A program made the translations under genes and the position numbers. Under the pieces are notes generated by a model, which worked only from the letters and a program-made list of their open reading frames with translations, did not search any database and was not told the DNA's origin. Below, one piece after another: positions 1 to 32,000 of a DNA stretch of 32,000 nucleotides. Within the stretch, counting starts at the first letter, position 1. The number at the start of each line of letters is the position of its first letter. Source of the DNA: an uncultured Alphaproteobacteria bacterium (lineage in GTDB: Bacteria > Pseudomonadota > Alphaproteobacteria > Rs-D84); the NCBI GenBank assembly GCA_963931495.1, contig OZ007020.1, positions 420,001 through 452,000 of the forward strand, written 5' to 3'.

Positions 1-2291
1 GGGACGCATACACCGTGATGGATGATTTGGATTCGGGTTCTGCAAATCCGTTAAGTGGCAAAGAAGGGGATGCGCTGTTTAATGCATCGCACCAACTATG
101 TGCCCAGCAAATGCCCGAATGTAATGAACAGTTAAGTATGCTGTCACTGATGTATCGCCAGCAAATTCGTTCCGATTGCACGGCGTATGAAAACAGTTTG
201 AATCAACAAAAACAAGCCAGCCAACAAAAATTAGCCGCGGCCCAAACGGCGTTACGCCAGGCGTCATATGAACAACTGCAAGCGGCGAATAAGTACGACT
301 TGGGTCAATGTACGGTTGAATTCAAAAACTGTATGATAACAACCGGTGGGTGTGGCGATGACTTTGCCGGGTGTGCAACAGTTGCGGCGTTTGATGCAAC
401 AAATACACGCGGTCGGGCCAGTGATGCAGAAAAATATTCAATCAAAGGCGCTGTTACAGAAATAGAAATTAATGCGTCAACGTACGATATTTTGTTGTCT
501 AAAAAGCCGTTGTGCGAAAGCGTGACTCAGCAATGTGTTAATGTTGCCGATCAAGTTTGGGATACTTTTTTGCGTGATATTGCGCCCCAGGTAAAGTCAG
601 CGGAATTAATTGCCGAAGATAATGCGCGCCAAAATTGCATTGGTAACATATCGTCATGTTTTCAACAGGCGTGTCGTGATACCATGGATCCAAATGATCC
701 AGATGGTTCGTATGATATGTGTCTGACACGGCCAGAAACAATGCTGGACTTATGTACAGTGCCGTTGAATGCATGTGAAATTTCTACGACGTCGGCGGCC
801 GAAGCAGAGGCGTCGCCAATATGGGAATTTGTGGTTGCGCGTTTGCAATCAATGCGTGTGAATTCGTGTACAACGCAATTCAAAGAATGTTTGCAATCCG
901 AAGACAGATGTGGTTCGGATTATACACAGTGCGTTGGACTGGATACAGATACAATCGTGCGGATGTGCCCGTATGACGCGTTGCCCGGATGCCAGCAGGT
1001 TTATGGCAGTAATGAAATTCGCGATGATGCCGTATATGACGAATTATATGAATTCGCCCAGGGAATATTCTTGGGCATAGACAACAATATGTTGGAATAT
1101 TGCCAGTCTGCGTTGGATGAAGCGGTCATAGAAGTTTGCGGTTCAACAGATTCCTGTGACCAGTACATGTTAAATCAAGATGTTGGTACGCGTTCATTGG
1201 ATTACAAAATCTGTGATATCCAGGTTATTGATGGTACGGATATTGCGTATTCAAATTGTCGGACAACGGCATCGCAAATAACAGATGTTGAATTGGGACG
1301 CAATGCAACCGGACAAATTTCACCGTTGGGTGGCGTTATTACAGGTACAATTTATTGGGACAGTGTTGATGTTGACAGCAATGGCAACATTACCCCGGTT
1401 GATGAATATTTCGTAAATGCAGATTTGACAGATGCATCAGATTCAGAAAAAGAAATGGTGGCGTTGGAATTGGGGGCGTTACAGACCAATATAGATATGG
1501 TGTTTGGTATGATTGAATCTGACCCGACCGTACAATTCTGTATGAGTGGCCGTGAAGTTCAGGGTATTAAACCGTATTCTGGGGAAACAAAACCACGGTT
1601 CCCAGAATTAACCAAACAGGTACGTATGCAGATTGCAACATCGGCACTGAATGCCGCGCGGGATAATTATTACCAGCGATATGATGAATTAAATGAACAA
1701 ATGAGCAAAGATAATATTGAAATCGCCGAACGTATTGCCGCGGTCAGTGGTGAAAATGCAAAAGATGTTCGTCGTGAAGCCGCACGCCAGGCATGTGTGA
1801 ACTTGGCAGATATGTCTGGTATGCCAAAGTCAGAGACACCAAAATCACTGGTTGGAACAATTATTGCCGCCGCGGTTATCGCGACATCGGCGGTTCTGAT
1901 TACAGTGTTCAGTGCAGGGATTGGTGGGTTGGTCGGGCTGGCAGCAACAGTTACAGCCAAAAGCGCCATTGTCGCGGCGGCACCAATAGTATATGTGGCC
2001 GCCGGGTCAGCCGGACTGGGGGCGGTCAGTGGATGGATCCAAGGGGCCGCAACGGCGGATTATTCTGGTGCCCAGGTTACAAACGAAGTCAAGGATTTAA
2101 CAGGGTATTTTGAAAATAAGCAATGGAATTACGAAGAAACAATTACAACAGAATTCAATATGGATACTCTGGTTTGTCACAAGTGTGTAAAATCACGTCA
2201 ATGTGCGAAAATAAAAACACCATTGTTTGGCAGCAAGTCTTGCAAGCAATGGGAAGAACCAATTGAGGTTTGTTCAGATATTGAGTTTTAA
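1..2291 (+). CDS. Cysteine-rich exported protein, family member A. The 5' end lies outside the window. It has a C-terminal Gly/Ala-rich hydrophobic anchor.
   Basis: The frame is open from nt 3 to the TAA at 2289-2291. The track ORF 15..2291 starts at an internal GTG and has no signal peptide there. I count about 33 Cys by hand. There are two copies of C-x6-C-x6-C-G-x2-[FY]-x2-C (nt 309-374 and 867-932). The protein is collinear with the gene at 30332 at an offset of about 186 aa. A hydrophobic stretch LVGTIIAAAVIATSAVLITVFSAGIGGLVGLAA...VAAGSAGLGAVSG lies at nt ~1848-2051. A hairpin terminator follows. Confidence 0.85.
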   Translation, partial: DAYTVMDDLDSGSANPLSGKEGDALFNASHQLCAQQMPECNEQLSMLSLMYRQQIRSDCTAYENSLNQQKQASQQKLAAAQTALRQASYEQLQAANKYDLGQCTVEFKNCMITTGGCGDDFAGCATVAAFDATNTRGRASDAEKYSIKGAVTEIEINASTYDILLSKKPLCESVTQQCVNVADQVWDTFLRDIAPQVKSAELIAEDNARQNCIGNISSCFQQACRDTMDPNDPDGSYDMCLTRPETMLDLCTVPLNACEISTTSAAEAEASPIWEFVVARLQSMRVNSCTTQFKECLQSEDRCGSDYTQCVGLDTDTIVRMCPYDALPGCQQVYGSNEIRDDAVYDELYEFAQGIFLGIDNNMLEYCQSALDEAVIEVCGSTDSCDQYMLNQDVGTRSLDYKICDIQVIDGTDIAYSNCRTTASQITDVELGRNATGQISPLGGVITGTIYWDSVDVDSNGNITPVDEYFVNADLTDASDSEKEMVALELGALQTNIDMVFGMIESDPTVQFCMSGREVQGIKPYSGETKPRFPELTKQVRMQIATSALNAARDNYYQRYDELNEQMSKDNIEIAERIAAVSGENAKDVRREAARQACVNLADMSGMPKSETPKSLVGTIIAAAVIATSAVLITVFSAGIGGLVGLAATVTAKSAIVAAAPIVYVAAGSAGLGAVSGWIQGAATADYSGAQVTNEVKDLTGYFENKQWNYEETITTEFNMDTLVCHKCVKSRQCAKIKTPLFGSKSCKQWEEPIEVCSDIEF

Positions 2292-2298
2292 TAAATAG

Positions 2299-2327
2299 AA
2301 AATCCCGCCAATGTCGGGATTTTTATT
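2299..2327. terminator. Bidirectional intrinsic terminator between convergent genes
   Basis: AATCCCG (2301-2307), loop CCAATGT, CGGGATT (2315-2321). An A-run lies 5' and TTTT lies 3'. Confidence 0.75.
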
Positions 2328-2357
2328 GTTCCGACGTAATACCACGGGCGTGACTAT

Positions 2358-3335
2358 TTATTTTATTTCATCAATTGATGTTATGACGCGTATGCCAGAT
2401 TTTTCCCATTCTTGGCGGTGTGTTTCAAAATCCATTATATTCGTTTGGCCCATGTATAATATTGGTTGCACGTTGTTTGCCGCGGCAACTGTGACCAGTG
2501 TTTTAATTGGTGATGGGCGTTGGCCACCGGTTGTGAACCATGTTTCTTCATCGGCAACCCAGAAGTTTGCATCGTCGTGTACGGCAATGGCGTTTTTATC
2601 GGTTAATATTATGTCGTCTTGGGTTGTGTATGCAATGCCTTGTTCGGTCAGATATTTTGTTACACTGTTTTCATTGTTATTGTCATTGATGATGGGGATG
2701 GGGGTGTCATCAAAATTTATTTCCGAGAATACTGGGTTAAATTCCGGCATCATTGTATCAACGTCGTTGTCTGATTCCATTGGAACATCAAAATCGTTTG
2801 GCAATGGTATTTGCCCCACAGGCTGTAATTCGGGTGCCGTGGGTTGTGCCGGGGGCGCGGATGTAATGTTACTGATATCAAATCCAGAACGGGGCAAGGC
2901 CGCAAGGTTGTTTTTTGCACGCGTATACATTGTGCGCATTTCGTGTGGCATGTTTGGTGGAAATTCTGGCGCATGATTTTGTTCTGGAATTTTTTCCGTC
3001 GGCGCCGGTGTATCATTGTTTTTGTCTGTTTGGGGCGCGTCACATGGAACAGGTTCCATAAACTTTGGTATTTTTATCGTAAACAGTGGTGCGTTACGGC
3101 GCGCAATTATTACAGTTGTTGCAACATATAATGGCAGTGCTGATAATATTAACAAACCAAATACAAATCCAGGAAATCCATGCAGTTCTGAACGCGCCAA
3201 GTGAATCCAGTATTCGGTGGAAAACATATTGAAATTAAACATCCAATATAAAATTGCCCACATTGTGAAAATATAAAATACTGTCCATATTAATGGATGC
3301 TTGATGCGTTTGAAAAAATTCAGTACTTTATTCAT
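2358..3335 (-). CDS. Hypothetical membrane protein with two N-terminal TM helices, a Pro-rich acidic linker and a C-terminal globular domain
   Basis: Long ORF. The track start at 3356 is a TTG, so I prefer the ATG at 3335 (MNKVLNFFKR...). Hydrophobic segments are LIWTVFYIFTMWAILYWMF and FVFGLLILSALPLYVATTVII. The linker reads PVPCDAPQTDKNNDTPAPTEKIPEQNHAPEFPP...APPAQPTAPELQPVGQIPLP. I recognise no family. Confidence 0.7.
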   Translation of the reverse strand: MNKVLNFFKRIKHPLIWTVFYIFTMWAILYWMFNFNMFSTEYWIHLARSELHGFPGFVFGLLILSALPLYVATTVIIARRNAPLFTIKIPKFMEPVPCDAPQTDKNNDTPAPTEKIPEQNHAPEFPPNMPHEMRTMYTRAKNNLAALPRSGFDISNITSAPPAQPTAPELQPVGQIPLPNDFDVPMESDNDVDTMMPEFNPVFSEINFDDTPIPIINDNNNENSVTKYLTEQGIAYTTQDDIILTDKNAIAVHDDANFWVADEETWFTTGGQRPSPIKTLVTVAAANNVQPILYMGQTNIMDFETHRQEWEKSGIRVITSIDEIK

Positions 3336-3482: not shown

Positions 3483-5504
3483 ATGCAAAATTTGCTGAAA
3501 ATGTTTGGCGTATCCGTTGTTGGTTTGGGAATCTGTGCGTTCGTTGGGGGCGCGTATGCGGTGGATACCAGTGCTGGGCGTGCGGCATATAATACGGTGC
3601 AATCTGCGCGGGCCGGTGCCACATCCCAGGCGCGTATGCCGACAATGCCGTCTTTGCCAATTAATGCGGTTGGAAATTTGTCCCCGAATGTGTCGGTGGA
3701 TAATGGGAATAATAATGATGATGGCGGTGGAAATGATGGTAACCCGGATATTCCCCCAGAACCAGAATGCCCAGATGGCGGGGTTAAAAATTCTGAATAT
3801 ACAGTGGATGATTGTATGAATGATATTCTGGCATGCATAAACAATGGGGCATTGCCGGGTGGGTTGAACGACATGTTTAACGAAGATCTGCGTAACGCGA
3901 TTGTTAATGGAATGGGACTGTGTGCAACCCAGGTTGACAGATGTATTACAGATGTGCGGCGCGATTGTGAAAATGTATATCGTTCGTCGGCAGATGTCTG
4001 GATTGATTTTAATTCGCGCAAGGTGCAACCGGAATACTATAACTTTGTATTGCGCAAAACGGGCTTGACCCCGAACCAGGCGGAAAATACATGCGAATTG
4101 TTGGACAGAAATGTTTATGGTTCTTCGTTTAATGCGGTGTCAAATTCGGGTACTGTTACCGCAGAATATAATAACCGGGTTGGCGCGTATAACAGCCAAA
4201 ATGGAAATGTGTTGGTTAAAACAACACCCCAAGGCGTCCAGGTTAACAGTAATGACAATTCCGTAGATGGCCAACGTGGGCACTATGCACGATGGGATCC
4301 GACAACTGCAGAATGCTGGTTGCGGGTGGCGGCCTATAACAAGGATACACATATTAAAAACAGTTGGCTGTTCGGTGCCGCTGGGAATGACCAGCCCGCC
4401 GAAGTGTGGCGTCTGGCCGGGGATACGTTTACGTGCAATCGCGATCTGTTCGGATTTTCTTTGATGAATCAAACAAATACCGCGGCCGTTGTTGGTATCG
4501 GTGGTGGTACACTGTTGGGTGTCGGGGTTGGTGCAATTGCCGGACATGGTGAACGTGCGTTTAACTGTGATATCAAAAATCATCGCGATATGTTGATGTC
4601 GGCGTTAAAGCAAAATGATTCTGTGGGCAAGGTGAATAAATATCTGGGGGCCGGTGTTCAATTGTCTGTGATTGATGACACTATGACACGCGAACAATGT
4701 GCGGCGGTTGTTACCCTGTATGATAACGCGGTCAGTAATTCGTTGTTGGTGACAACGGATATATCTGGGACAATGACGTTGGATATCCAGGCGGTTTGTG
4801 CCGCTGGCCAGGCAGAGGCTGATTGCATCAACGCCAATGCACGTGGGTGTGCCGATGCGGGTATAACCACAATTGCGGCGTGCCAAGATTTCTTGTCAGG
4901 GCAATCTTGTGTCAATATGTCGCCGGATGAATGTATTGATTACTTGGTGAATGATTTGGGTGTGAACAGAAATGCGATTACGGTTGAAAGCGTGTCGGAA
5001 ACAACGATGGTCACAACCCAAGAAGCCAGCGATATTCGTGCAATATTTACCAGCGATGTAATTGATTTAATGCAAAATGGCGATGATTCTAATATGGGCA
5101 AGGCAATTGGTATTGGCGCCGCGGCCGGTGCCGGTGCCGGTGGATTGGCCACAGCGATAACGGCATTTGTTGAACGCAGTAATATTAATTGCCGCGTTGG
5201 TGATGGTCTGGCCCAGGTCGGATATGGTAAATCGTATGCGATTGAATCGTTAAAAGATTTCTATGTTAAGTGGAATTTGAATTTACCGGATACTGTATCG
5301 CCGACGGCCACGGTTGTGGACTGTGATTCATGGCGGCGTGCATGTGGCACAATCAAAGATTTGAATCAATGTCCACATGTTCAGATTAATTATCGGCCGG
5401 CCGGGGCGGCGACAACAACACTGATACCATCGGCATGTGCCGTATCGGGCAGTGAATGTATTGAAAACTATCCGGTGGCAAAATCGTTTGGTGCATGTAA
5501 GTAA
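3483..5504 (+). CDS. Cysteine-rich exported protein, family member B, with two internal glycine-zipper segments
   Basis: RBS AAGGGGGAG lies 8 nt upstream of the ATG. Signal peptide MQNLLKMFGVSVVGLGICAFVGGAYA. ARMPTM box at nt 3630-3647. 24 Cys by hand count. Cys units include C-x6-C-x7-C (CATQVDRCITDVRRDC) and a duplicated C-x8-C-x7-C (nt 4797-4934). Glycine zippers are AAVVGIGGGTLLGVGVGAIAG (4479-4550) and GKAIGIGAAAGAGAGGLATAITA (5097-5168). A terminator follows. Confidence 0.9.
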   Translation: MQNLLKMFGVSVVGLGICAFVGGAYAVDTSAGRAAYNTVQSARAGATSQARMPTMPSLPINAVGNLSPNVSVDNGNNNDDGGGNDGNPDIPPEPECPDGGVKNSEYTVDDCMNDILACINNGALPGGLNDMFNEDLRNAIVNGMGLCATQVDRCITDVRRDCENVYRSSADVWIDFNSRKVQPEYYNFVLRKTGLTPNQAENTCELLDRNVYGSSFNAVSNSGTVTAEYNNRVGAYNSQNGNVLVKTTPQGVQVNSNDNSVDGQRGHYARWDPTTAECWLRVAAYNKDTHIKNSWLFGAAGNDQPAEVWRLAGDTFTCNRDLFGFSLMNQTNTAAVVGIGGGTLLGVGVGAIAGHGERAFNCDIKNHRDMLMSALKQNDSVGKVNKYLGAGVQLSVIDDTMTREQCAAVVTLYDNAVSNSLLVTTDISGTMTLDIQAVCAAGQAEADCINANARGCADAGITTIAACQDFLSGQSCVNMSPDECIDYLVNDLGVNRNAITVESVSETTMVTTQEASDIRAIFTSDVIDLMQNGDDSNMGKAIGIGAAAGAGAGGLATAITAFVERSNINCRVGDGLAQVGYGKSYAIESLKDFYVKWNLNLPDTVSPTATVVDCDSWRRACGTIKDLNQCPHVQINYRPAGAATTTLIPSACAVSGSECIENYPVAKSFGACK

Positions 5505-5950: not shown

Positions 5951-8803
5951 TTATACTTGGCAAACTGTGTTACTGTATTGTATTTCAATATTGCGGCAAT
6001 CTGGTTGGTCACCGATGTCGGGGCATGCCGACGAACCCGCGCCAATTGATGTGATATTATTTGGATTTAATCCGGATTCTATCAGTACGTCACGCACAGC
6101 ATCGGCGCGTTGTTGGGACAGTGGTGTATTGATCGCATCGTTACCTGTTTTGTCTGTATTTCCAATAACGCTGATGCAATAATTTGCATTTGTGCCGGAC
6201 GTTTGTTTTACATCTGTGGCGAAATCTTTTATTATTTTTTCTGCATCGGTGGTCAAGCGACTTTCGTTCACAGCAAACAACTGTGGTGCCGGTATTTGCA
6301 GTCTGTCAATTGGTAACGTGGGATTTTTAACGCACTGTCCGGCCAGATTTATTATATGATTCGGACTGGGGCATGCACATGCCGTTATGTATTCTGGGTT
6401 ATCTGGTGAATATTGCGGTATAAAACCATTGTCACATGTACATGAACAATCAGTTGTATCAAAGCGAATGTTTGCCGCCGTGATATCACATTCGTATTCT
6501 TGGCATGTTGCAATTGGCGCAATACACACGTCGTTATCCATTTCTGTGGTTCCAGCAGGACATTGGCATGTGTTGTTTACAGAAATCTTGTCGCCTGGAC
6601 ATATGTCACATGTATTCGTATTTTTGTTATATGCAGATTTTGTGTCAGAACATACACAATTTGGATATGTTCCGGTTGCATTGGATGGACATTGTGCATC
6701 TGCGTCTTGGTCGGGCAAGATTGCAACCGCGTTTTCCAGTGATTTTAATGGTTCATACTTTGCGATGATGTCATCAGTTAAATTCTGGGGTGATTTTTTG
6801 TTTTCATTTATCGCAATATTGCCAATTATACTGGCCAATGTACCAACCCCAGCCGTTATTAAACCTGTTTGTAATTGTTCCGATGTCGCAGATTGTTGCG
6901 CCGCCCATGCCGCCGCCGCAGGTCCAGTCGGATCAGATAACGCCGCCGCCAATGATACATATACACCATCACCGCGACCCAACGATACATTGTCGTATAA
7001 CCCAGATGTCGCACTGTCTTGTATTATCTCGGATTCTATGCCAGGACTTAATCCCAATGCTTCTTTACGCGTCTTTAAGTCTGATGCCAATGTTATATAT
7101 TCTGTATACAGTGGTAATAACTGGTTCCCCCCAGGTAACGTTATGCCCGTTTCACCACCACTGATGTTGCGACCAGAACCATAGTCACACCGGAATGTTG
7201 CCAGGTATGCCGTCATATCGCGTGTCGCATCATTTGATGCATTCTGTTGCGCCAACGCAGATGCTGTTTGCATTAATCCAATACCTGTTGCACCAATGCC
7301 GGCAGCCCCCAGTATCTTGTTCGCTGTTGATTGTTCTTTGTCACGCATCGCGTCCGCATTCGCCTGTAATTCCGAAATCTGGGCCAACGAATCTTCTTGC
7401 GAAAGAATAGGGGTTATGCATGATTTTTTATCCGGGCTGGGGCTGTATCCATCGGCACAGGTATCAATTATGCATACTTCGGTTCCAGTTGCGGTGTCCC
7501 ATTCACGGTGTGCCGCAATGGCGTTTTCTGGCATTGGGTGACAGTCACCCGCAATTGGAACGCATTTACCGTCACTGACATCAAAACCGGCGTTGCATTC
7601 TGTGGCATGGCACACACCGTTTTTCAATTCGCCATTTGTGGCGTTTTCAATGGCGAAAATTTGTTCTGGGGTACATGAACCTTCGCTGGGGATGCATGCA
7701 GTATCGTTGTCATCAGGCAAGAATCCCTTGGCGCATCGTACAATGCATAATAATTTACCGTTACGTAATTCGTATTTTCCGGAACGGGCGTTCGTTGGTA
7801 ATGTCAGGCAATTATCCCCATCACCCAAACACTTGCTATTTTGTTCATCCGCGATGTATGGTGATTTACACTTGGTCACACGGCATGAAATACCGCCGTT
7901 GGCATTTGTGCGGTATGTGCCGGATTCTGCATGTGGGATTTTTGCAATATCGCTGTCGCTGCACGGGTCGCCCGGCTGGACAGACTGTACGACAACGGCA
8001 TCCAGCATCATATCATCGTCCATGGTCAAAGTTATGGTCCCCACATCTGGTGACGATGATGATACAGATACAAACTGTTGATTATACCCCAGGCCACTGA
8101 TTAATATTTCATCGGTTATACTTGTAACTTCCAGACTGAAATGTCCATTTGCATCAGTTGTTGCATAGTTTGCCAGTCCTGGGACAGATATATCGGCACC
8201 AACCACCGGACCAATGTTATCAACAACCGTACCGGTTACAAACATTGTTGTCGCATTTGATTCCGGTGCAGACGTGGATTCAGACGGCGTTTGTGGAATG
8301 TTCATTAAATCAGCATGTAAATCTGTGTCGGGGGTGTTGAATTCCATGTCTGGAACCTGGATATCATCGTATGAAACGTCAATGTCGTTTGATATTTCTG
8401 GGGCGTCTGGTGTTGTAACTGTTCTGGTGTTCCCGTTACATTCGGCATCAATCATTTCATTTATGAATTGTTCTTCGGCAATAAATTCCAATTGGCCATT
8501 TTGACATTGTTGCGGTTGGCATTGGCGTAATGTTTGTCCCGCCTGGCACGTGTATGGATATGACTGCATACCCAAAGTGCACATAGTGTCCAGATTTTGT
8601 GTCAGTGGTGTATCAAGTTGTTTGTTGAATTCCGAATTTGGATCATTTTTTATTTGATTATATATTTGTTGGTATCGTGGGTTGTTGGCCGGTGCGTCAA
8701 AAGCATATTTTTGCCGAACCCGAATGGCACAATCGTCAATACTGGCCGCGAATGCGGGCAATGTAAACAATGCCACAAAAATTCCGGTCAATATCTTGTT
8801 CAT
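5951..8803 (-). CDS. Large cysteine-rich envelope protein, family member C. Domain order: CarboxypepD_reg-like fold, four tandem 4-Cys repeats, glycine zipper, EGF-like Cys cluster, C-terminal OmpA-like peptidoglycan-binding domain.
   Basis: Signal peptide MNKILTGIFVALFTLPAFA. About 43 Cys. TGTVVDNIGPVVGADISVPGLANYATTDANGHFSLEV (nt 8018-8245) matches the carboxypeptidase-regulatory-like beta-sandwich pattern. Glycine zipper ILGAAGIGATGIGLMQTA at 7253-7318. Cys cluster CPSNATGTYPNCVCS...CDICPGD...CQCPAGT...CSCTCDNGF at 6332-6691. The OmpA_C-like motif set ISVIGNTDKTGNDAINTPLSQQRADAVRDVLIESGL...G.GSSACP...CRNIEIQY lies at 5969-6283. The start is 6 nt after the upstream stop, with AGAAAGG as RBS. 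Confidence 0.9.
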   Translation of the reverse strand: MNKILTGIFVALFTLPAFAASIDDCAIRVRQKYAFDAPANNPRYQQIYNQIKNDPNSEFNKQLDTPLTQNLDTMCTLGMQSYPYTCQAGQTLRQCQPQQCQNGQLEFIAEEQFINEMIDAECNGNTRTVTTPDAPEISNDIDVSYDDIQVPDMEFNTPDTDLHADLMNIPQTPSESTSAPESNATTMFVTGTVVDNIGPVVGADISVPGLANYATTDANGHFSLEVTSITDEILISGLGYNQQFVSVSSSSPDVGTITLTMDDDMMLDAVVVQSVQPGDPCSDSDIAKIPHAESGTYRTNANGGISCRVTKCKSPYIADEQNSKCLGDGDNCLTLPTNARSGKYELRNGKLLCIVRCAKGFLPDDNDTACIPSEGSCTPEQIFAIENATNGELKNGVCHATECNAGFDVSDGKCVPIAGDCHPMPENAIAAHREWDTATGTEVCIIDTCADGYSPSPDKKSCITPILSQEDSLAQISELQANADAMRDKEQSTANKILGAAGIGATGIGLMQTASALAQQNASNDATRDMTAYLATFRCDYGSGRNISGGETGITLPGGNQLLPLYTEYITLASDLKTRKEALGLSPGIESEIIQDSATSGLYDNVSLGRGDGVYVSLAAALSDPTGPAAAAWAAQQSATSEQLQTGLITAGVGTLASIIGNIAINENKKSPQNLTDDIIAKYEPLKSLENAVAILPDQDADAQCPSNATGTYPNCVCSDTKSAYNKNTNTCDICPGDKISVNNTCQCPAGTTEMDNDVCIAPIATCQEYECDITAANIRFDTTDCSCTCDNGFIPQYSPDNPEYITACACPSPNHIINLAGQCVKNPTLPIDRLQIPAPQLFAVNESRLTTDAEKIIKDFATDVKQTSGTNANYCISVIGNTDKTGNDAINTPLSQQRADAVRDVLIESGLNPNNITSIGAGSSACPDIGDQPDCRNIEIQYSNTVCQV
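7415..7963 (-). repeat. Four tandem ~40-45-aa 4-Cys protein repeats inside gene C
   Basis: aa 281-325, 332-370, 377-414 and 421-462. Each follows C-x20-25-(G..)C-x3-4-C-x2-G[FY]/PY-x6-9-C-[ILV]-[PGT]. Examples: NCLTLPTNARSGKYELRNGKLLCIVRCAKGFLPDDNDTACIP, SCTPEQIFAIENATNGELKNGVCHATECNAGFDVSDGKCVP, DCHPMPENAIAAHREWDTATGTEVCIIDTCADGYSPSPDKKSCITP. Confidence 0.8.
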
Positions 8804-10186: not shown

Positions 10187-11053
10187 TTAATCCAATAATT
10201 CACATGCCGTGTCATAAAATTCACACAGTTGTGTTGCCGCCGTGCGTTCGGATTCATATCCGTCACCACAGTGGTTGGGCATATTTTGTGCGCACACGGT
10301 TTCAATACATATATTTTTTGCGTTGGCATCTTTGCATCCATTTTGTGCCGATGCCAGGCGTTGTTCGCGTGCATTCTGGTACGCGGTAACAATGTTGTTT
10401 AACAATGTATCGGCGTTTTCAATGGCAAAGTCGCGGTCAGATGTTAAATCTGCGCGTATGTCGGCCAGATATTCATCACATCCCGCAGCAACAACCCCGC
10501 ATTCAGAAAAGAATTTATTAAAATCTGAATCTGTTTCGCATGCCGCCCAGTCTGGACCGCAACGATTCGCATTCACCATACATGCACGAATATCGGTGGA
10601 ACATGATGTCGCACTGGTGGTCTGGGCATTACGCGCCAGTGATGCCGCGTATTGTGCACTGACCCCCGCGGCACGACATGATTGTTCAATTAATTTATCG
10701 TATACATCAGATACGTCGTCCGCCGTGCAACCGTCAACCTTGGAAATACACTGGCGGGCCGCCCATATATAACGCTGGCCCGGGTCGGTTGGCGCGTCAG
10801 CCAGTTCGTCTTCGGTTAATGTGTATCGTGCAGACTGGCCCAAAGACAGACTGCGCATGCCACCGGTTGTTGGCGGGGTGCCGGCACTGGATGTGCCACA
10901 ATATTGACACCGTGCCGCCGGATTAGATGACACATTTATTGCACATACAGAATCCAGGCAACGCGTTAAGTTCATCTGGGAACACGTGGCACCAAGCGCA
11001 AATGACGGGCACAATAACACCCCGACGAAAAAAAATGTAATACGTGTGTTCAT
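10187..11053 (-). CDS. Cysteine-rich exported protein, family member E (compact version, first gene of the operon)
   Basis: Signal peptide MNTRITFFFVGVLLCPSFALGA. 20 Cys in ~266 mature aa. N-terminal knot CSQMNLTRCLDSVCAINVSSNPAARCQYC. Module CSTDIRACMVNANRCGPDWAAC at nt 10538-10603. Confidence 0.88.
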   Translation of the reverse strand: MNTRITFFFVGVLLCPSFALGATCSQMNLTRCLDSVCAINVSSNPAARCQYCGTSSAGTPPTTGGMRSLSLGQSARYTLTEDELADAPTDPGQRYIWAARQCISKVDGCTADDVSDVYDKLIEQSCRAAGVSAQYAASLARNAQTTSATSCSTDIRACMVNANRCGPDWAACETDSDFNKFFSECGVVAAGCDEYLADIRADLTSDRDFAIENADTLLNNIVTAYQNAREQRLASAQNGCKDANAKNICIETVCAQNMPNHCGDGYESERTAATQLCEFYDTACELLD

Positions 11054-11899: not shown

Positions 11900-11923
11900 T
11901 AAATAAGTGTAATGTGTAATAAT

Positions 11924-11955
11924 ATGCCCCGGGGGTTGCCCGGGGCATTTTTTTG
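11924..11955 (+). terminator. Intrinsic terminator
   Basis: ATGCCCCGGG (11924-11933), loop GGTTG, CCCGGGGCAT (11939-11948), T7. Confidence 0.85.
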
Positions 11956-11965
11956 GTATGAATTT

Positions 11966-11994
11966 TTGCTAGACATATCTTTCACAAGTATGTT
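11966..11994 (+). promoter_or_regulatory. Putative promoter for the 12025 autotransporter gene
   Basis: TTGCTA (11966-11971), 17 nt, TATGTT (11989-11994). Confidence 0.35.
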
Positions 11995-26502: not shown

Positions 26503-26503
26503 T

Positions 26504-27235
26504 TTAATTGTTTGTAAAATATTTGCCACGTTGACGTTTGGATACAGATTCCATTTCATCAAATATATCGTCCGCGGCGTTTGTATCCATTGCGTTGGCG
26601 TTCGTACCAGTTATATATTCGGCACCGTTCAGTATGATTATGCGACTGGGTAACATTTCGCCATCGTTGTTACATTCAATATAATACTGGTTATAATCAT
26701 ATTCTTTGCCGTAACAGCCGTCTTCTTCAATTGCGATAAATCCCCAATCAGCCAAATCGCGGCATGACGGAATCGGATCAGCAATTAATCCATTCGGAAC
26801 ATCAGCCACCCAATCAACAGGAACGTTTTCACACCATACGGGTACCATTTCTTCATCCCAATATGCCATGGAACCGTTCGCAGATGTTCGGCGTACACCA
26901 AAGCAATCACCGTTCAAGACATCTGTATCAAAATCAGGATTAATACCATTGTTTTTTTTGATGTCATTCATTGTTTTTGCCACGGGAATAAATGCGTTTG
27001 GGTCATCCAATGCTTCGGGACAAATTAATTTTTGCCCCCAGCATTTTGCGTCATTGTCCCATATTTGCGATTCATATCCGATACCCATTTTGGTATAGCA
27101 TTCTGTGGGATCACGCCGGCACACGGTTGATGTGGCCAATGTCCAATTACTGGCCGCGTTGGCACCAGATGCCAACAGTATGCCCAGTAAAGATATCGCG
27201 AACGTTTTTCCCATTTTTATTCTCTTGTCGTGCAT
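26504..27235 (-). CDS. Small exported Cys-containing, acidic, Trp/Asp-rich protein (H). It is a possible distant associate of the Cys-rich family.
   Basis: Signal peptide (MHDKRIK)MGKTFAISLLGILLASGANA. 10 Cys. An alternative start is the ATG at 27214, if the TTGATT-17-TAAAAT promoter at 27264-27236 is real. The gene lies directly downstream of family member F on the same strand. Confidence 0.75.
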   Translation of the reverse strand: MHDKRIKMGKTFAISLLGILLASGANAASNWTLATSTVCRRDPTECYTKMGIGYESQIWDNDAKCWGQKLICPEALDDPNAFIPVAKTMNDIKKNNGINPDFDTDVLNGDCFGVRRTSANGSMAYWDEEMVPVWCENVPVDWVADVPNGLIADPIPSCRDLADWGFIAIEEDGCYGKEYDYNQYYIECNNDGEMLPSRIIILNGAEYITGTNANAMDTNAADDIFDEMESVSKRQRGKYFTNN

Positions 27236-27306: not shown

Positions 27307-29820
27307 TTATGGTGTGTCAGACAGGCTTTCTATGCTGGATGTGTCTGCGCAATAACCCCACTTTGAATTTGCCCCCGTTTCATCATAGAAATATTTTAAC
27401 TGGGTATGTCCTGTTTTATCATGAACGCCGTCGGCGGTGTCATTTGCATTGTCAACCCATTGTGTATCAACCCATGTTCCACCCAGTCGTTCGCATTCCG
27501 CAGATAATTGGGTCGCCATATCACGCCGTACAGAATCCATTACGATGTTAATATCCTGTAATACCGCGATTGGCACAGTTGCTGTTGAATCTGTTGCGTT
27601 TAATTCTTCATAGAACGACGGACGCAGGCATGTTTCCAATGCATACTGGGTCATTTTTTGATACAGACTGCCGACGTAATCGTCGCCACAATCCTGGCTT
27701 GTGCCACCGACCGTCCCAGCGACTGGTGCATCTTTTCCACCGTTACATGTGTAACCTGTCGGACATGGCAGACAACGGTTGTTGACCGCTTCTGTGGTTG
27801 TTGGTACCCAATTGCCATCATTTTGTGTCGCCAAGAAAAATCCTGGTGCACAGCTGTAAAATACAATCTGTGTCAGACACATATATCCATTATCTGGCAG
27901 ATTCACCCCAATATCAACCACCACAGAACTGTCCGCGGGAACAGATACACCTTCGGCACGGTTACACGCCATGTCAGATGCGTATATATGGTCACCTGGG
28001 GAATACACACGGCATCCATATGGGTATGTGTGTAATGTATCGTTACTGGGGACGGTACAGGTTTCTTGGGCAAATGTGGTCAGCAAGTCACGGCAATTTG
28101 ACAATATTTTTTGATCAGTTAAATCGGCCATTGCATCAACCAATAATTGCAACCCTTCGCCATCAGGATCACCGTACAGGCGGCTGCATGTGTTTAATTT
28201 TTCGCGACACAGTTCTTCGGACAATTCCAAACGCGACCCCAGTAATAATTCTTCTTTGATATTACTAAAATCTTTCAATGATTCTGATTGTTGGTCATAA
28301 CATGCGTTAACAACATCCATACATTCGTTCTTTACCGTGCGAACGCGTGACTGTTGACCTTGGTATATTTCGGTCAGTGCCTGGCGTACGAATTCGTCCC
28401 ATACTTCGTCTGAAATGTCGCGGCATGTGTCCAGACTGCCTTCGGCATACATGCGCATGCGATTTAATTCTGCAACAATCAATCGGTTCGTTGCGTTATT
28501 CAGCACATCGCCGTCCAGTGATATTTGGTATTCCAGTTGATAAAATTCTTCGCTGTAAATTGGTTCGCCGGTATCACGATTCAGATAGCGACCGGTAATA
28601 TCCAGACAATGAACGTAATTCGGACCACATGCGGTTTCTGCGGTAATGTCGGCACGAACATTCGCAATACAGTCGTTGATAGATGTTGAATTGTGGGCGT
28701 TGTAGTTATCAAGACGGGCAACATTCATTTCGCGTTCTGTGCTGCGTATAGAACTGTTTGCCTGGATTAACTGGTTATCCAGTGCATTTGATAAATTTGT
28801 ACAATCGTTTTCAATATACATACCGTACGCGGAAACAACCATTGATAATGTTGATTTATTGGTGCAACTGTCGGCAACAATGTCAACACATTGGGCATGA
28901 ACAGCGTTATACAATGCTTCACCAGTCAGATTGGCAATGTTTTCACCAGATGCCAAATCTGTTGTTGCCCATATTTGATTTATGTCCCCGGCAATGTCCA
29001 GTTTGCCCAGCGTTGACAGAGACTGGGTTTTTGATGTTGATAAAACTTCACTGATTCCGGCCAAATATTGCGCAGATTCAGATGAATCGTTTTTGATTGC
29101 TTGTTCGCCTTCGCTGGCATGTAACATGGCATTGACTTCGCCCGCTGTTTTATCAATCACGTCAATGTTCAAGTTGTGAAAGTCTTGTAATTGGTCCGAC
29201 GCCTGGGCCAATGCGCGTTCGCGTTCTTGGATATCAGTCAGGCGTGAAGAACATATACACCGACGATATGAATCGTTGGCGGTTGCACAAAATTGGTCCA
29301 TGCATGTAAAATATGCGTCGCGGCACTGGTTATATCCAGTACCAAATGTACTGGTCGTCGCAGGTGAACCAATTGTTGTCGCACGTGCCGTTGTACGTGC
29401 CGCGCGCGCCGGTGATGATGTCGCGCTGCGTACCGTGGTGGCCGCGCGATTTACGGTGTTGGTTGTCGCACTGCGTGGCGATGCGGTGGCAACGGTTGTT
29501 GATGCGCTGCGTGCAACGCGTGATGTCGGGGTTGTTGCACTGCGTGTTATGGTTTGTTGCGATGCCGAACGTGATGTTACGGACGAATTGCGTGAAATTG
29601 TATTCTGGTGCGATGCGCGTGATGATACCGTATTGGATTGACGCCCCGATTGAACAGAACCGGTGCCTGTGCGCGAATTTGTTGTCGCACGTGCAATAAC
29701 AGATGTTTCGGTGTCAGATGAATTATTCGTCCGATTTATGGATTTTGAATCACGAACAGCAGCGTCAGCATGCACGATGCAAACGCAACACATCATGATA
29801 AAAATCCACAGTTTTCTCAT
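27307..29820 (-). CDS. Cysteine-rich exported protein, family member F, with a long N-terminal Arg/Ser/Thr/Ala repeat region
   Basis: Signal peptide MRKLWIFIMMCCVCIVHADA. Low-complexity region at aa 21-160. N-terminal knot CRDAYFTCMDQFCATANDSYRRCICS (nt 29251-29325). 29 mature Cys. Collinear with A and G, for example CRDISDEVWDEFVRQA vs A CVNVADQVWDTFLRDIA. CLPCPTGYTC lies at 27745-27774. Confidence 0.9.
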   Translation of the reverse strand: MRKLWIFIMMCCVCIVHADAAVRDSKSINRTNNSSDTETSVIARATTNSRTGTGSVQSGRQSNTVSSRASHQNTISRNSSVTSRSASQQTITRSATTPTSRVARSASTTVATASPRSATTNTVNRAATTVRSATSSPARAARTTARATTIGSPATTSTFGTGYNQCRDAYFTCMDQFCATANDSYRRCICSSRLTDIQERERALAQASDQLQDFHNLNIDVIDKTAGEVNAMLHASEGEQAIKNDSSESAQYLAGISEVLSTSKTQSLSTLGKLDIAGDINQIWATTDLASGENIANLTGEALYNAVHAQCVDIVADSCTNKSTLSMVVSAYGMYIENDCTNLSNALDNQLIQANSSIRSTEREMNVARLDNYNAHNSTSINDCIANVRADITAETACGPNYVHCLDITGRYLNRDTGEPIYSEEFYQLEYQISLDGDVLNNATNRLIVAELNRMRMYAEGSLDTCRDISDEVWDEFVRQALTEIYQGQQSRVRTVKNECMDVVNACYDQQSESLKDFSNIKEELLLGSRLELSEELCREKLNTCSRLYGDPDGEGLQLLVDAMADLTDQKILSNCRDLLTTFAQETCTVPSNDTLHTYPYGCRVYSPGDHIYASDMACNRAEGVSVPADSSVVVDIGVNLPDNGYMCLTQIVFYSCAPGFFLATQNDGNWVPTTTEAVNNRCLPCPTGYTCNGGKDAPVAGTVGGTSQDCGDDYVGSLYQKMTQYALETCLRPSFYEELNATDSTATVPIAVLQDINIVMDSVRRDMATQLSAECERLGGTWVDTQWVDNANDTADGVHDKTGHTQLKYFYDETGANSKWGYCADTSSIESLSDTP
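29341..29760 (-). repeat. Degenerate R-[SA]-A-[ST]-[ST]-type low-complexity repeat (coding) in gene F
   Basis: ...SRSASQQTITRSATTPTSRVARSASTTVATASPRSATTNTVNRAATTVRSATSSPARAARTTARATT... The DNA shows imperfect repeats of GTTGT(C/T)GCAC(T)GCGTG-like units on the plus strand. Confidence 0.75.
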
Positions 29821-29906: not shown

Positions 29907-29933
29907 CAAAAAAAATCCATCAAACGGTGGATT
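29907..29933 (-). terminator. Intrinsic terminator after infA
   Basis: Minus strand: AATCCA, loop CCGTTTGA, TGGATT, then T8 (plus-strand A-run 29908-29915). The 5' arm overlaps the infA stop codon. Confidence 0.65.
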
Positions 29934-30189
29934 ATGCATTTGATTGTGATGGCGCGTCCCCAGGTGCACGGTTGCGTTCAACAAATGTTATACGACCCTT
30001 GTCCAGATCATACGGTGTCATTTCAACACGAACATTTTCGCCGACGTTCACCCAGATGCGTGCCTTGCGCATTTTGCCACATACGGTTGCCAATATTTCG
30101 TGGCCATTGTCCAAGCGAACACGGAACATTGTGTTTGGTAATTTATCAACCACAGTGCCACTGAAAACAATTACATCATCTTTTGCCAT
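29932..30189 (-). CDS. infA: Translation initiation factor IF-1
   Basis: [69 protein letters not shown] is near-canonical IF-1. AAGGA lies 6 nt upstream. It carries a C-terminal extension of about 10-13 aa ([13 protein letters not shown]). Confidence 0.95.
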
Positions 30190-30256: not shown

Positions 30257-30271
30257 GATGTTTTTATGTGC

Positions 30272-30300
30272 TTGCACGGGATGGATTGTTTTGATAAAAT
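30272..30300 (+). promoter_or_regulatory. Putative promoter for family member G
   Basis: TTGCAC (30272-30277), 17 nt, TAAAAT (30295-30300). RBS GGGTGGA at 30320-30326. Confidence 0.5.
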
Positions 30301-30331
30301 TCTATGTAAAGTAATATGTAGGGTGGATTCT

Positions 30332-32000
30332 ATGAAACTTGGATTTTTTTTAGCCACATTGTTTTTAATCCCTGGAATTGTTAACGCCGCAGATCGCACG
30401 TCGGCCAGTTCGGTGCGTGTTGGTGCCAATCGGGCGTCCCAGGTTGGCGCGCGAATGCCGACAATGACGGCCAATGTCGGTGGCGGTACAGTTGAACAGT
30501 CGGCTGTGTTGACGGTGAATCCACTGACCCCCAGTCCAAGTGTTGTGGAATCTGAATCTGATGATGGGGCGGATGATTCTTCGTCGGGGGGCGCGGATAC
30601 AGAAATCGTTGCAAACAGCCAGTCGTGTCGTGATGCATATCGGGCGTGTATGGATGAATTTTGTTTGCTGGATGAATCCGAGGGGAATCGTTGTGCGTGT
30701 TCTGCAAATATAAACCAGGCAAAACCACTTATCCAAGAAATACAAGAAATTCAAGAAGAAGCAGATTTGCTGTATACCGAAGGGGTTGAACGTGAACAAC
30801 TGGGGGGCCAGGCGCGGTTGGTATTCGGTGAAAGCGAAGCGGCACAAAAAAGTTCGCGCGTGTCGGGCATCAGCTTTGCAGATCGGATAAATATGGGGAC
30901 AGAACAAGAAGATGCCGGTTTGGGCGCAGATTATGATATTGGTGAAGGGCTGTATATGATGGCGGCAGAATTCTGTGCAGACAAATTGGCGGCCTGTGGT
31001 GATGATGCCCAGATGGAAGAAATATTGTATTCACGTTTAATTGTTCAAGATTGTAAAAATTATGAATCTTATTTGAATGACCAAAAATCTATTGCGGAAT
31101 CAAATAAACGCACAGCCGAAGCGGCCGTGCGCCAGGCGCGTTTAGATATGCTGGATACAACAAACAAGTATAATCGCGGCGAATGTTTATTGGCGTATCG
31201 TTCTTGTATCGCGGACAAGGGTGGCTGCGGCGTTAATTTTGAAAACTGTTTGGATGCAGATTTGCTGCAACGCCGTGCAAATGCGTGTGAAAATGTTTTG
31301 GATCAATGCATGGCTGTGCGTGAATACGTCTTGCAGGACTGGGAAGCCGAAGCGGTTTCTATACTGGCGGATGCGGAAAAATATGCTGATCGGTATGCAC
31401 GTCAAACGTGCTTGTCACGGATACAGTTGTGTTTGGAAGACGGCTGTTCAACCAGTACGAATTCAGCATGTTTAACAGATGTTAATGTTGCCGCCGGTGT
31501 TTGCCCGGTTATTGATGAATGTGAAGCGATGATACCTGGTATCAAGGCGGTTGTTAATGACAAGTTGGGTTATCTGCGTACACAATTCTGTCAAAATGAT
31601 GTTGACCAATGTTTGCGTGACCGCTGTGGCGAAAACTTTACTGCGCCGGAATGTGTCGGAAAAAGTGCGCGTGAAATTGCCGAACTGTGTCCCCAGGATA
31701 TGTTCCCGTCATGTAATAATGAAACGCAATTTGATATCATTGTGAATGCGGCATTGTTGCAAATGGATTACCAGATGTTACAAGGCTGTTTGAATTATTT
31801 CAGTCAACAGTTGGGTGCGGTTTGCGGGACAGATATGTCGTGTCTGCCGACAGATACGTTGGTGACGTCGTTGACAGAAATTCCAGATAACCAGGAAGAT
31901 TTGGCCGCATTGCGTGAAACGTTGCGTGAAAATACAGAATTGTCGGTGGACGAATTCTTTGAACAGTTTGAACAGGATAAAACCGTGGCGGCGTGCCAAA
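30332..32000 (+). CDS. Cysteine-rich exported protein, family member G (3' end outside the window)
   Basis: This ORF is not in the supplied track because it has no stop in the window. I translated it by hand from the ATG at 30332, and the frame stays open for 556 codons to the window end. Signal peptide MKLGFFLATLFLIPGIVNA. ARMPTM box at 30449-30466. Knot CRDAYRACMDEFCLLDESEGNRCACS at 30626-30700. Modules CLLAYRSCIADKGGCGVNFENC (31184-31249) and CQNDVDQCLRDRCGENFTAPEC (31589-31654). At least 30 Cys. Confidence 0.88.
   Translation, partial: MKLGFFLATLFLIPGIVNAADRTSASSVRVGANRASQVGARMPTMTANVGGGTVEQSAVLTVNPLTPSPSVVESESDDGADDSSSGGADTEIVANSQSCRDAYRACMDEFCLLDESEGNRCACSANINQAKPLIQEIQEIQEEADLLYTEGVEREQLGGQARLVFGESEAAQKSSRVSGISFADRINMGTEQEDAGLGADYDIGEGLYMMAAEFCADKLAACGDDAQMEEILYSRLIVQDCKNYESYLNDQKSIAESNKRTAEAAVRQARLDMLDTTNKYNRGECLLAYRSCIADKGGCGVNFENCLDADLLQRRANACENVLDQCMAVREYVLQDWEAEAVSILADAEKYADRYARQTCLSRIQLCLEDGCSTSTNSACLTDVNVAAGVCPVIDECEAMIPGIKAVVNDKLGYLRTQFCQNDVDQCLRDRCGENFTAPECVGKSAREIAELCPQDMFPSCNNETQFDIIVNAALLQMDYQMLQGCLNYFSQQLGAVCGTDMSCLPTDTLVTSLTEIPDNQEDLAALRETLRENTELSVDEFFEQFEQDKTVAACQ

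Follow-up and report, generated by a model that had tools for sequence, protein, structure and literature searches.

A 32,000-nucleotide stretch of the genome (~0.96 Mb) of Candidatus Enterousia (order Rs-D84, Alphaproteobacteria), an uncultured gut bacterium, carries eight open reading frames (A-H) with 3.5-7.3% cysteine each, compared to 0-1.4% in six identified neighbor genes. The first-pass annotation of this stretch, hereafter the window, had read them as one lineage-specific expanded family of seven or eight paralogs. Are these proteins relatives of one another, and what might they do for the cell? Rs-D84 genomes are smaller than 1 Mb and lack respiration and standard transporters, and dependence on a partner has been proposed (PMC12306168).

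All eight ORFs are present (Table 1) and fill 44.7% of the window (A-G, 42.5%), in line with the 42-45% estimated initially. Over the whole ORFs we counted 33 (A), 25 (B), 43 (C), 16 (D), 21 (E), 32 (F), 30 (G) and 9 (H) cysteines; once the signal peptides were removed, these matched the earlier counts for the mature parts in every protein but H (9, not 10). By inspection, each of the eight begins with a hydrophobic stretch that closes in an AxA-like site, in keeping with the signal peptides assigned before to all but A, and seven proteins, including the non-homologous B, have in common an acid-poor, R/S/T/A-rich stretch directly after the signal peptide. The annotated neighbors include the core genes already named (ppiD-like, tpiA, grpE and infA) and, again as described, no transposase or integrase is found among the annotated genes of the window.

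Table 1. Features discussed in the text, by window position
Feature	Coordinates	Strand	Description
A	1..2291	+	C-terminal 762 codons of 957-aa exported Cys-rich helical protein; assigned to core superfamily
I	2358..3335	-	325 aa, two predicted TM segments, 1 Cys; not a family member
B	3483..5504	+	673-aa exported Cys-rich protein; ortholog family of its own
C	5951..8803	-	950-aa exported protein; last gene of E-D-C string
D	8810..10177	-	455-aa exported protein; 15 conserved mature Cys
E	10187..11053	-	288-aa exported all-helical protein (predicted); 20 invariant mature Cys
Two genes divergent from E	11201..15747	+	Conserved neighbors; not family members
Membrane-anchored protein	11201-11899	+	232 aa
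Exported Cys-poor protein	12025-15747	+	1240 aa
H	26504..27235	-	243-aa exported protein; 9 conserved Cys; downstream of F
F	27307..29820	-	837 aa; assigned to core superfamily
infA	29932..30189	-	85 aa; housekeeping gene between F and G
G	30332..32000	+	First 556 codons of 722-aa protein, 36 Cys; assigned to core superfamily

Relatives and non-relatives among the eight ORFs

The collinear similarity of A and G, noted initially over more than 250 aa, extends over 366 aa (BLASTP, E 4e-34), and BLASTP also joined A to F (3e-13) and F to G (2e-15). Composition-preserving shuffles of the mature cores gave z scores of 58 (A-G), 31 (A-F) and 23 (F-G), and hhalign comparison of ortholog alignments presented the same picture (98-100% for the A/F/G pairs). 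With all cysteines masked, the profile-profile matches A-G (99.6%, E 3e-24) and A-F (98.6%, E 6e-16) were kept, but the direct F-G match was gone (2.5%); thus, A is the link between F and G. Two further paralogs of these three proteins, Z and J (834 aa), lie just beyond the window, J adjoining G on its downstream side. The N-terminal knot (C..Y..CMDxFC-x9-CxC) first recognized in F and G is indeed there, and is also found in Z and in full-length A (P0001, 97% identical).

A has two C-x6-C...CGxD[FY]xxC modules, a strongly hydrophobic Gly-rich segment (residues 809-870, full-length numbering) and a small Cys-rich beta C-terminal domain, with 36 of its 38 cysteines kept in at least 80% of 67 orthologs; its AF2 model, of moderate confidence (pLDDT 66, pTM 0.39), consists of long helices. 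In G, read at full length from a 99.99%-identical contig of 958,617 bp, the knot is joined by two Cys modules, a Cys motif and a Gly-zipper at the C-terminus; its match to Gly-zipper_YMGG is weak (E 1.4e-4 when the segment is taken by itself; 21.9 bits, cut-off 28.9). In F, a long S/T/R-rich N-terminal region accompanies the knot, a variant Cys module replaces the canonical one, 29 mature cysteines are conserved, and the C-terminus, absent from A, G, Z and J, has one sub-threshold Pfam match (DUF7631). On these sequence comparisons, A, F and G are secure paralogs that form one predicted long-helix superfamily with Z and J.

D and E, both short, are probably distant members of this superfamily, E a compact one, on cysteine-dependent evidence. 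They have in common the module C-x6-C...CG-x2-[FWY]-x2-3-C; nine copies of the four-Cys module occur in all, seven in the window (two each in A, G and D, one in E) and two in Z, and a six-frame translation of the window held no other copy. Shuffle z scores were 9.5 (D-E), 8.2 (A-D) and 4.6 (A-E), and hhalign gave 93.7% for D-E and 81% over 34 columns for A-D, while residues 100-201 of E aligned with 405-536 of A (Prob 71.5%, E 3.6e-5). The AF2 model of E (pLDDT 76), like that of A, is nearly all helix. The first-pass annotation had staked the family on similarity that outlasts cysteine masking: this holds for A-G and A-F, but besides the direct F-G match, A-D and A-E were lost at the profile level, and D-E fell to 40%.

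B, C and H are also Cys-rich, but by sequence they stand apart from the A/F/G core: their shuffle z scores against all others were ~0, with D-B as the sole exception, and their hhalign values against the core were below 10%; B had no BLAST relation to it either. The separate module claimed for B and D is real (AG[SD]TFxC..FG followed by a Gly-zipper, z 5.1), and in D it follows two C-x6-C...CGxxFxxC modules. B also has a TM-like, strongly hydrophobic Gly-rich stretch (residues 334-354), and an N-terminal RMPTM motif is conserved in both the B and G groups. C combines a CarboxypepD_reg-like domain (CarbopepD_reg_2 in Pfam, 45.7 bits; cut-off 32.2), EGF-like Cys repeats (weak EGF-like and CPL1-like matches, under cut-off), Gly-rich hydrophobic segments (strongly so at residues 647-665) and a C-terminal OmpA-type peptidoglycan-binding domain (Pfam, 54.7 bits; gathering cut-off 27.2), for which the NCBIfam matches are all under cut-off (YiaD, 61 against 175).

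We considered that the likeness might be compositional only, with unrelated Cys-rich proteins that chance to adjoin. This describes B, C and H, and it can draw on the cysteine dependence of the D and E matches to A and on pairwise BLAST, in which replacing Cys by X leaves A, F and G with only E 0.003-0.016; however, the masked A-G and A-F profiles, the core z scores of 23-58 and the collinear modules refute it for A, F, G, Z and J, and as an account of the whole it is very improbable. Thus, as judged from these alignments, the eight ORFs are not a single eight-member family and only some are true relatives: A, F and G securely (20% of the window) and D and E marginally (27% with these).

As the first-pass annotation held, the core proteins are unlike any described family. 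Apart from the OmpA and CarboxypepD_reg domains in C, searches of the set against Pfam and NCBIfam gave no match above cut-off, PDB sequence profiles gave none for the set proteins, and Foldseek of two AlphaFold models against the PDB gave none. Chlamydial OMP3/OMP6, for which the Pfam library presumably includes models, did not match in the scan of the set.

Conservation of the set and its gene order

Homologs number more than 1000 for A and 712 for E (45-77% identity), all of them unnamed MAG proteins, and those of E reduce to only 67 cluster representatives among 1.84 billion proteins. Each member forms its own conserved ortholog group in which nearly all cysteines are invariant, except in C (14 of 43). 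The strings E>D>C (begun by E, its genes separated by 9 and 6 bp), I|B and H<F|G>J are maintained over the 38 long loci surveyed, and the divergent I-B pair, found in 28 of the 38, is kept through rearrangement. I, for which the gene call was taken from a 97%-identical strain, has no Pfam match; a plus-strand ORF overlapping it (2311-2976) was rejected as spurious. D and E also recur in one block with the two genes divergent from E, which have only a weak ankyrin match in Pfam; the products of these two genes are possible partners of the set. A Pmp-type autotransporter gene is found among the neighbors, and K, just outside the window, carries Ephrin_rec_like repeats (Pfam, 37 bits; cut-off 23.1).

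In a distant alphaproteobacterial lineage (RpoA 51% identical), G-, A-, F-, E- and D-like genes form one co-directional array, together with a gene for a small Gly-zipper protein. The distinct ortholog groups and this array indicate an old, multi-component set rather than a recent expansion. Of the earlier claim of a lineage-specific expanded family, the confinement to one lineage stands, but recent paralog amplification does not. Gene conversion between Z and A yields mosaics between strains. The Sec-exported Cys-rich proteins encoded in the window are an old set that is inherited together.

A putative disulfide-stapled scaffold and its alternatives

An envelope role was a reasonable proposal, and this Cys-rich, mostly helical set is probably part of the cell envelope, based on the signal-peptide-like N-termini, the OmpA domain of C and the hydrophobic Gly-rich stretches of A, B and C. 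Dominance of the C-x6-C spacing, at most two CXXC per family member, the absence of CXXCH from the family, the scarcity of His (1-3 in A, Z, J, G and E) and the helical AF2 models favor disulfides over metal sites. The number of mature cysteines is even in A, Z, G, J, E and B and odd in F, D, H and C; six against four gives parity no statistical support.

From these features and the predicted models, we infer a function as a cell-envelope system, and our best, if tentative, reading is a disulfide-stapled scaffold anchored to membrane and peptidoglycan. After Sec export, the invariant cysteines would form intramolecular disulfides, with C-x6-C placing two cysteines on one helix face, so that helix-loop-helix units are stapled into rigid, protease-resistant rods. 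The hydrophobic Gly-zipper-like segments of A, B and C (G more weakly) would tether the proteins to a membrane, C would anchor to peptidoglycan through its OmpA domain, and the odd conserved cysteines of F, D and H could form intermolecular links, bracing a scaffold in the periplasm or outer envelope. Several points count against this reading: a lineage without a respiratory chain makes classical DsbB re-oxidation questionable, the reducing gut lumen would stress surface disulfides, and only G matches a Gly-zipper model, under the Pfam cut-off.

The proposed function is analogous to that of the chlamydial cysteine-rich outer-membrane complex (OmcB/OmcA, MOMP, Pmps), likewise several Sec-exported Cys-rich envelope proteins of a dependent, small-genome diderm, with a Pmp-type autotransporter gene near the set here too and envelope disulfide bracing as the proposed role. 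There is no sequence relation, however; cross-linking in our set is putative, and OmcB is beta-rich whereas the set is predicted to be almost all-helical. Disulfide-linked outer-membrane proteins of Anaplasmataceae are a comparable case. YiaD-type Gly-zipper/OmpA lipoproteins and SlyB/Pcp-type proteins resemble C in its bona fide OmpA domain and Gly-rich segments, G in its weak zipper match, and A, B and D in similar segments, but no protein of the set has a lipobox, C's OmpA domain alone passes a curated cut-off, and the Cys-rich helical bulk has no counterpart there. In twin Cx9C/Cx3C (CHCH) proteins of the mitochondrial intermembrane space, Cys pairs spaced by one or two helical turns on antiparallel helices form two disulfides after export into an oxidizing compartment. 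The principle is the same in the helix-loop-helix context of C-x6-C, but the set has x6 spacing and a CGxDFxxC loop, is 10-50 times larger with many tandem units, and is bacterial, Sec-exported and not homologous.

Ephrin_rec_like and EGF-like repeats are usual in surface-exposed proteins, so those of K (above cut-off) and C (below) are as compatible with a role at the surface or in adhesion as with a scaffold. The proteins could thus be surface adhesins or cell-contact proteins, forming a protease-resistant coat or attachment apparatus beyond the outer membrane that grips a partner cell, mucus or epithelium. Coats rich in Cys are an established answer to protease-rich anaerobic guts, and ephrin-receptor-like, TNFR or EGF surface repeats (as in Giardia VSP/HCMP-like coats) are echoed in K, weakly in C and in the DUF7631 match of F, but the core superfamily (A, Z, F, G, J, D and E) is not built of them and is not recognized by any of these models. 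The nearby autotransporter, the Z/A mosaics, and the post-signal stretch and B/G RMPTM motif, which could be a second-step sorting tag, would suit adhesins, as would the partner-dependent lifestyle proposed for Rs-D84 (PMC12306168). Nevertheless, neither a known signal for crossing the outer membrane nor genes for a dedicated secretion route were seen in the loci, the cores show strong conservation instead of hypervariability, C's OmpA domain and A's hydrophobic hairpin suggest the periplasmic side, and the disulfides would face the reducing lumen; we therefore regard adhesins as somewhat unlikely.

Symbionts with reduced genomes frequently commit lineage-specific genes to effectors, and the lack of known domains would agree with effectors or toxins delivered into a host or partner cell. 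Such proteins are quite improbable here, given 700-960 aa with 30-38 structural cysteines and membrane-anchoring segments, close conservation throughout the order in which each paralog keeps its identity, no secretion-system genes nearby, and no homologs on plasmids or in phages. Redox proteins, or proteins that bind a metal or cofactor, with the cysteines as ligands, would suit many invariant cysteines in an anaerobe that perhaps has no classical route to disulfides, but are highly unlikely given the motif and His counts above, Sec export of unfolded chains, Cys spacing that suits helix stapling, and no Pfam metal-cluster domain. If the disulfide-braced scaffold is the true function, it could lend a partner-dependent cell mechanical integrity and perhaps a contact surface.

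Relationships among the cysteine-rich proteins

ORF listing and translation recovered all eight Cys-rich ORFs (A-H) described by the first-pass annotation, with the positions it gave, and together they occupy 44.7% of the window, in line with its estimate of ~42-45%. Their whole-ORF Cys content is 3.5-7.3%, while that of six neighbours (the two large exported proteins, ppiD-like, grpE, DUF1015 and pyruvyl transferase) is 0-0.6%, that of the choloylglycine-hydrolase-like (CBAH) neighbour 1.0% and that of two small unannotated ORFs 1.3-1.4%. The annotated identities of the ppiD-like, tpiA, grpE and infA neighbours were likewise upheld; further neighbours are DUF1015, the choloylglycine-hydrolase-like gene, a Pmp-type autotransporter and pyruvyl transferase. 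The mature Cys counts reported earlier are correct, once signal-peptide Cys are removed, for all members but H, where the number is 9 and not 10. Each of A-H begins with a hydrophobic N-terminus that ends in an AxA-type site, as expected of the exported proteins they were claimed to be; Sec export was read from these sequences rather than from a dedicated signal-peptide predictor.

Coordinates of the genes and features discussed (window positions unless a fetched related locus is named)
Feature	Position	Strand	Length (aa)	Cys in whole ORF	Description
A	<1-2291	+	957 (full length; Cys count for the window part)	33	cut by window edge
Z			958		tandem paralog upstream of A
Rejected ORF	2311-2976	+			overlaps I
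I	2358-3335	-	325		two predicted TM segments, Pro-rich linker, C-terminal domain
B	3483-5504	+		25
B N-terminus	3483-3760	+			RMPTM(P)
C	5951-8803	-		43
D	8810-10177	-		16
D N-terminus	9900-10177	-			RxPT in place of RMPTM
E	10187-11053	-		21
o11201	starts 11201	+			Cys-poor neighbour
o12025	12025-15747	+	1240		very large exported Cys-poor protein; weak ankyrin match only
CBAH gene	20463-21671	-			CBAH family, bile-salt/penicillin-acylase type, 216 bits
Autotransporter	21970-25311	+			very large, exported, Cys-poor; Chlamydia-Pmp-type repeats; Autotransporter 115 bits, Chlam_PMP 43.8 bits
H	26504-27235	-		9
F	27307-29820	-		32
G	30332->32000	+		30	cut by window edge
G N-terminus	30332-30640	+			RMPTM(P)
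G, full length	L080 14885-17053		722
J	L080 17105-19609		834	36	fifth large paralog, after G
OB-fold gene	L080 19721-20092				BOF/YgiW-type, after J
K	L081 20366-20977				Cys-rich; Ephrin_rec_like/TNFR repeats, 37 bits (cut-off 23.1)
Restriction pair	L001 1742-3353				TaqI-like restriction enzyme and N6/N4 methyltransferase, between rpsK and rpoA
Distant array	L084 3479-12294				co-directional, adjoining rpoA-rplQ

For the family question, we fetched 77 related genome loci, made an ortholog alignment for each protein, and compared these profile to profile (hhalign), assigning to one superfamily those proteins with collinear profile homology that survives both Cys masking and composition-preserving shuffles, the latter done on mature cores with Cys content held constant. 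All-vs-all BLASTP bore out the proposed collinear alignment of A with G (4e-34 over 366 aa) and joined A to F (3e-13) and F to G (2e-15); weak matches linked A-D (2e-5), A-E (3e-3) and D-E (4e-3), and B, C and H matched no other member. J is 34% identical to A (E 6e-123). Run on the ortholog alignments, hhalign unites A, Z, F and G with probabilities of 98-100% and puts D-E at 93.7%; the A-D (81%) and A-E (71%) matches are confined to one Cys module of 24-34 columns. For B, the matches to G and D are limited to its signal peptide and low-complexity N-terminus, and C, H and I (the gene between A and B) have no profile match to the others. Shuffle z-scores fall in the same direction, from A-G (58), A-F (31) and F-G (23) to D-E (9.5), A-D (8.2), G-D (6.5), D-B (5.1), A-E (4.6) and G-E (3.7), and are about 0 for the remaining B, C and H pairs.

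Cys masking, the refuting test named in the first-pass annotation, left A-G (99.6%, E 3e-24) and A-F (98.6%, E 6e-16) intact at profile level, whereas the direct F-G match dropped to 2.5%, D-E dropped to 40%, and A-D and A-E vanished. With X substituted for every C, pairwise BLAST retained no more than E = 0.003-0.016 for A/F/G. Since their direct match is lost under masking, F and G are joined via A. In a comparison with larger alignments, E 100-201 is collinear with A 405-536 (Prob 71.5%, E 3.6e-5). Homology surviving both controls was found for A, F, G, Z and J, and was absent for B, C and H by hhalign and shuffles. From these comparisons, we consider A, F and G secure paralogs, D and E probable distant and compact relatives that rest on Cys-containing modules, and B, C and H proteins distinct from A/F/G. 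Thus, the proposal of one family of 7-8 paralogs stands for A, F and G, with D and E probable, but fails for B, C and H; BLASTP, hhalign, shuffle z-scores and Cys masking together rule out a single eight-member family. A module said to be shared by B and D was found, as one short module plus a Gly-zipper common to both.

Anatomy, disulfides and known families

The large paralogs A, Z, F, G and J have a common layout, in which the signal peptide gives way to a disordered stretch that is poor in acidic residues and rich in R/S/T/A (longest in F, at about 140 aa), and then come an N-terminal knot, C-x6-C-x4-C-x9-C-x-C, and long helices that bear the Cys modules. A small Cys-rich C-terminal domain, with the terminus C-x-D-[IV]-x-[FM], closes A, Z, G and J. 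For A (pLDDT 66), AlphaFold predicts a beta domain at the C-terminus and helices as long as 67 residues, and it predicts an all-helical fold for E (pLDDT 76, with the C-terminal half >85). Strongly hydrophobic Gly-rich segments lie at A 809-870, B 334-354 and C 647-665. Against PF13441 (Gly-zipper_YMGG), the G segment reaches 21.9 bits (E 1.4e-4), below the cut-off of 28.9. No match to the Gly-zipper models PF13441, PF13488, PF05433 and PF13436 came from the A, B, C or D segments, whose membership of these families was dropped for want of Pfam support.

The acid-poor stretch stands directly after the signal peptide in seven proteins (A, Z, J, G, F, D and B), and proteins of the distant lineage described below also bear one. 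The ortholog groups of B and G, two otherwise unrelated proteins, both conserve the motif RMPTM(P) in their mature N-terminal disordered regions. The stretch may act as a tag for sorting or anchoring.

C-x6-C is the predominant Cys spacing (A 11, J 10, G 8, E 6, D 5, B 4), a dominance that extends to the non-homologous B and H. A motif count of the family members found no CXXCH and 0-2 CXXC each, a pattern unlike that of multihaem, Fe-S or Zn-ribbon proteins, and His is very scarce in A, Z, J, G and E (1-3 per protein of 288-958 aa). Thus, the C-x6-C dominance, the lack of CXXCH, the near lack of CXXC and the few His favour disulfide-stapled helical hairpins over metal sites. Four proteins have an odd number of mature Cys, namely F (29), D (15), H (9) and C (43, only 14 of them conserved); for A, Z, G, J, E and B the number is even.

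Among A-H, C is the one protein with a named family. It belongs to the OmpA family (PF00691, residues 842-926, 54.7 bits compared to a gathering cut-off of 27.2), and its sequence contains NTPLSQQRADAV, which fits N..LS..RA..V, the peptidoglycan-binding motif of this family; a CarboxypepD_reg-like domain and EGF-like repeats complete the protein. C scored 61 bits against the YiaD-type lipoprotein model NF053611, through the OmpA part only and short of the full-length threshold of 175 bits, and its signal peptide, which terminates in AFA|A, lacks a lipobox Cys, so that the YiaD-type lipoprotein signal is absent. For A, B, D, E, F, G and H the claim that no named family is involved held in Pfam and NCBIfam scans, and A, B, D, E, F, G, H, Z and J had no Pfam-A or NCBIfam match at or near the gathering cut-off. 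Pfam scans of each of 42 A orthologs gave no recurrent family, solved structures (PDB) showed neither sequence-profile similarity nor, for two AlphaFold models, Foldseek similarity, and Foldseek against BFVD returned no match; with these searches empty, a known-domain assignment was rejected for the proteins other than C. Literature searches on Enterousia and Rs-D84 turned up only genome surveys, in the available text of which these proteins go unmentioned.

Age, distribution and genomic setting

A has >1000 homologs and E has 712, with orthologs typically 45-77% identical and nearly all Cys conserved. Several gene strings are kept through rearrangements (E>D(>C), I beside B, D-E beside o11201-o12025, and H<F beside G>J), and in some genomes all of them lie inside 22 kb. 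I, which had no family match in Pfam, is a constant divergent neighbour of B (28 of 38 long loci, also after inversions); the plus-strand ORF that overlaps it is spurious, I being the conserved gene there. A distant Alphaproteobacteria MAG (GC 35%), from a lineage whose RpoA is 51% identical to that of Enterousia (compared to 86-94% within the genus), carries in order G-like (713 aa), A-like (718), F-like (712), E-like (273) and D-like (369) genes, and last a Gly-zipper protein of 121 aa. Directly upstream of this array is an integrase gene, and one copy of the locus sits on a 2.7-kb contig, with a number >34,000, in the very fragmented NCBI assembly GCA_022702835.1.

The distant array, together with the conserved ortholog groups and strings, implies that the paralogs split long ago and stay together. 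The set is therefore old, and the proposed lineage-specific expansion does not hold in the sense of a recent one: ortholog groups are conserved and the distant lineage has separate G-, A-, F-, E- and D-like genes. Such co-retention of old paralogs, as seen in gene order, is what the components of a single apparatus would be expected to show. Searched exhaustively with the E profile HMM, 1.84 billion cluster representatives yielded only 67 proteins, nearly all of them like E; an 803-aa match (E 5e-4) is repetitive and probably eukaryotic, and was treated as a false positive. A mobile-element origin was rejected, tblastn having found no match in 72,556 plasmids or 50,697 phages.

We also noted other features of the surrounding DNA. 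The o12025 gene accompanies the E-D block across genomes. The CBAH product has a hydrophobic N-terminal region and may be exported, and the gene is notable in a gut symbiont with very reduced metabolism. In a 97%-identical strain, the restriction/methyltransferase pair breaks an otherwise conserved ribosomal-protein/rpoA string. GC skew over the window (1-32000, 2-kb bins) is about +0.2 mostly over plus-strand genes and about 0 mostly over minus-strand genes, probably a mixture of coding-strand and replication-strand bias.

A putative envelope scaffold

The host is an uncultured gut member of the Alphaproteobacteria, Candidatus Enterousia (GTDB order Rs-D84). From position 15447 to its right edge (32000), the window agrees at 99.99% identity with a stretch of a 958,617-bp contig (ena:ERZ21564551:s287.ctg000449c), to which the pyruvyl-transferase gene led, exact-sequence look-ups of F and H having found no record. 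In the available text of PMC12306168, genomes of the genus are 0.75-1.0 Mb, a range into which this contig falls, and lack a TCA cycle, respiratory chains and standard transporters, partner-dependence is proposed, and Rs-D84/Enterousia are described as uncultured, widespread in human and animal guts, and with Patescibacteria-like reduced genomes. The fetched loci, ~1.4 Mb in total, cover little of each genome; a motif scan of them found no Dsb-like thioredoxin proteins, the CxxC there being NrdR-type only.

We propose that A-H would be Sec-exported proteins stiffened by many intramolecular disulfides, some perhaps held to the membrane by Gly-zipper-like hairpins and one tied to peptidoglycan through its OmpA domain. 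Together they might form an envelope scaffold, possibly cross-linked via unpaired Cys of F, D and H, whose odd conserved Cys counts are the only pointer to intermolecular cross-links. Such a scaffold would work much like the chlamydial cysteine-rich outer-membrane complex. Pfam-A includes Chlam_OMP3 and Chlam_OMP6 models, and no OmcA/OmcB-type homology appeared in Pfam at E up to 1; with no such hit and a predicted helical fold, the set does not belong to that group.

The main rival to the scaffold is a surface coat or adhesion apparatus, which would fit the partner-dependent lifestyle, the Pmp-type autotransporter nearby, the repeats of ephrin and EGF type found in K and C, the common N-terminal tag, with RMPTM conserved in the otherwise unrelated B and G, and the Z-A mosaics present between strains. 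We rate the set as of a kind already known, Cys-rich exported envelope proteins of a small-genome symbiont, but one made up of an undescribed superfamily. A bolder and rather unlikely reading is that the proteins, at least 10 in number, are a kit for an unseen Rs-D84-type envelope architecture or attachment organelle, with R/S/T-rich RMPTM sorting and non-classical disulfide oxidation in a fermentative anaerobe without quinone-linked respiration. It is a puzzle how a strict fermenter with no respiratory chain oxidises dozens of exported Cys pairs, or keeps them reduced.

By the gene lengths found, these Cys-rich exported proteins (at least 10) make up roughly 2% of a ~0.96-Mb genome. Since there is no detectable sequence or structural relative, one structure or one localised member would open a new protein family, and the highly conserved A and E are good candidate markers or antigens with which to visualise and enrich these organisms. 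Given its share of the genome, its invariant Cys in 38 long loci and its presence in at least one distant lineage, the set is probably central to the cell biology of Rs-D84/Enterousia.
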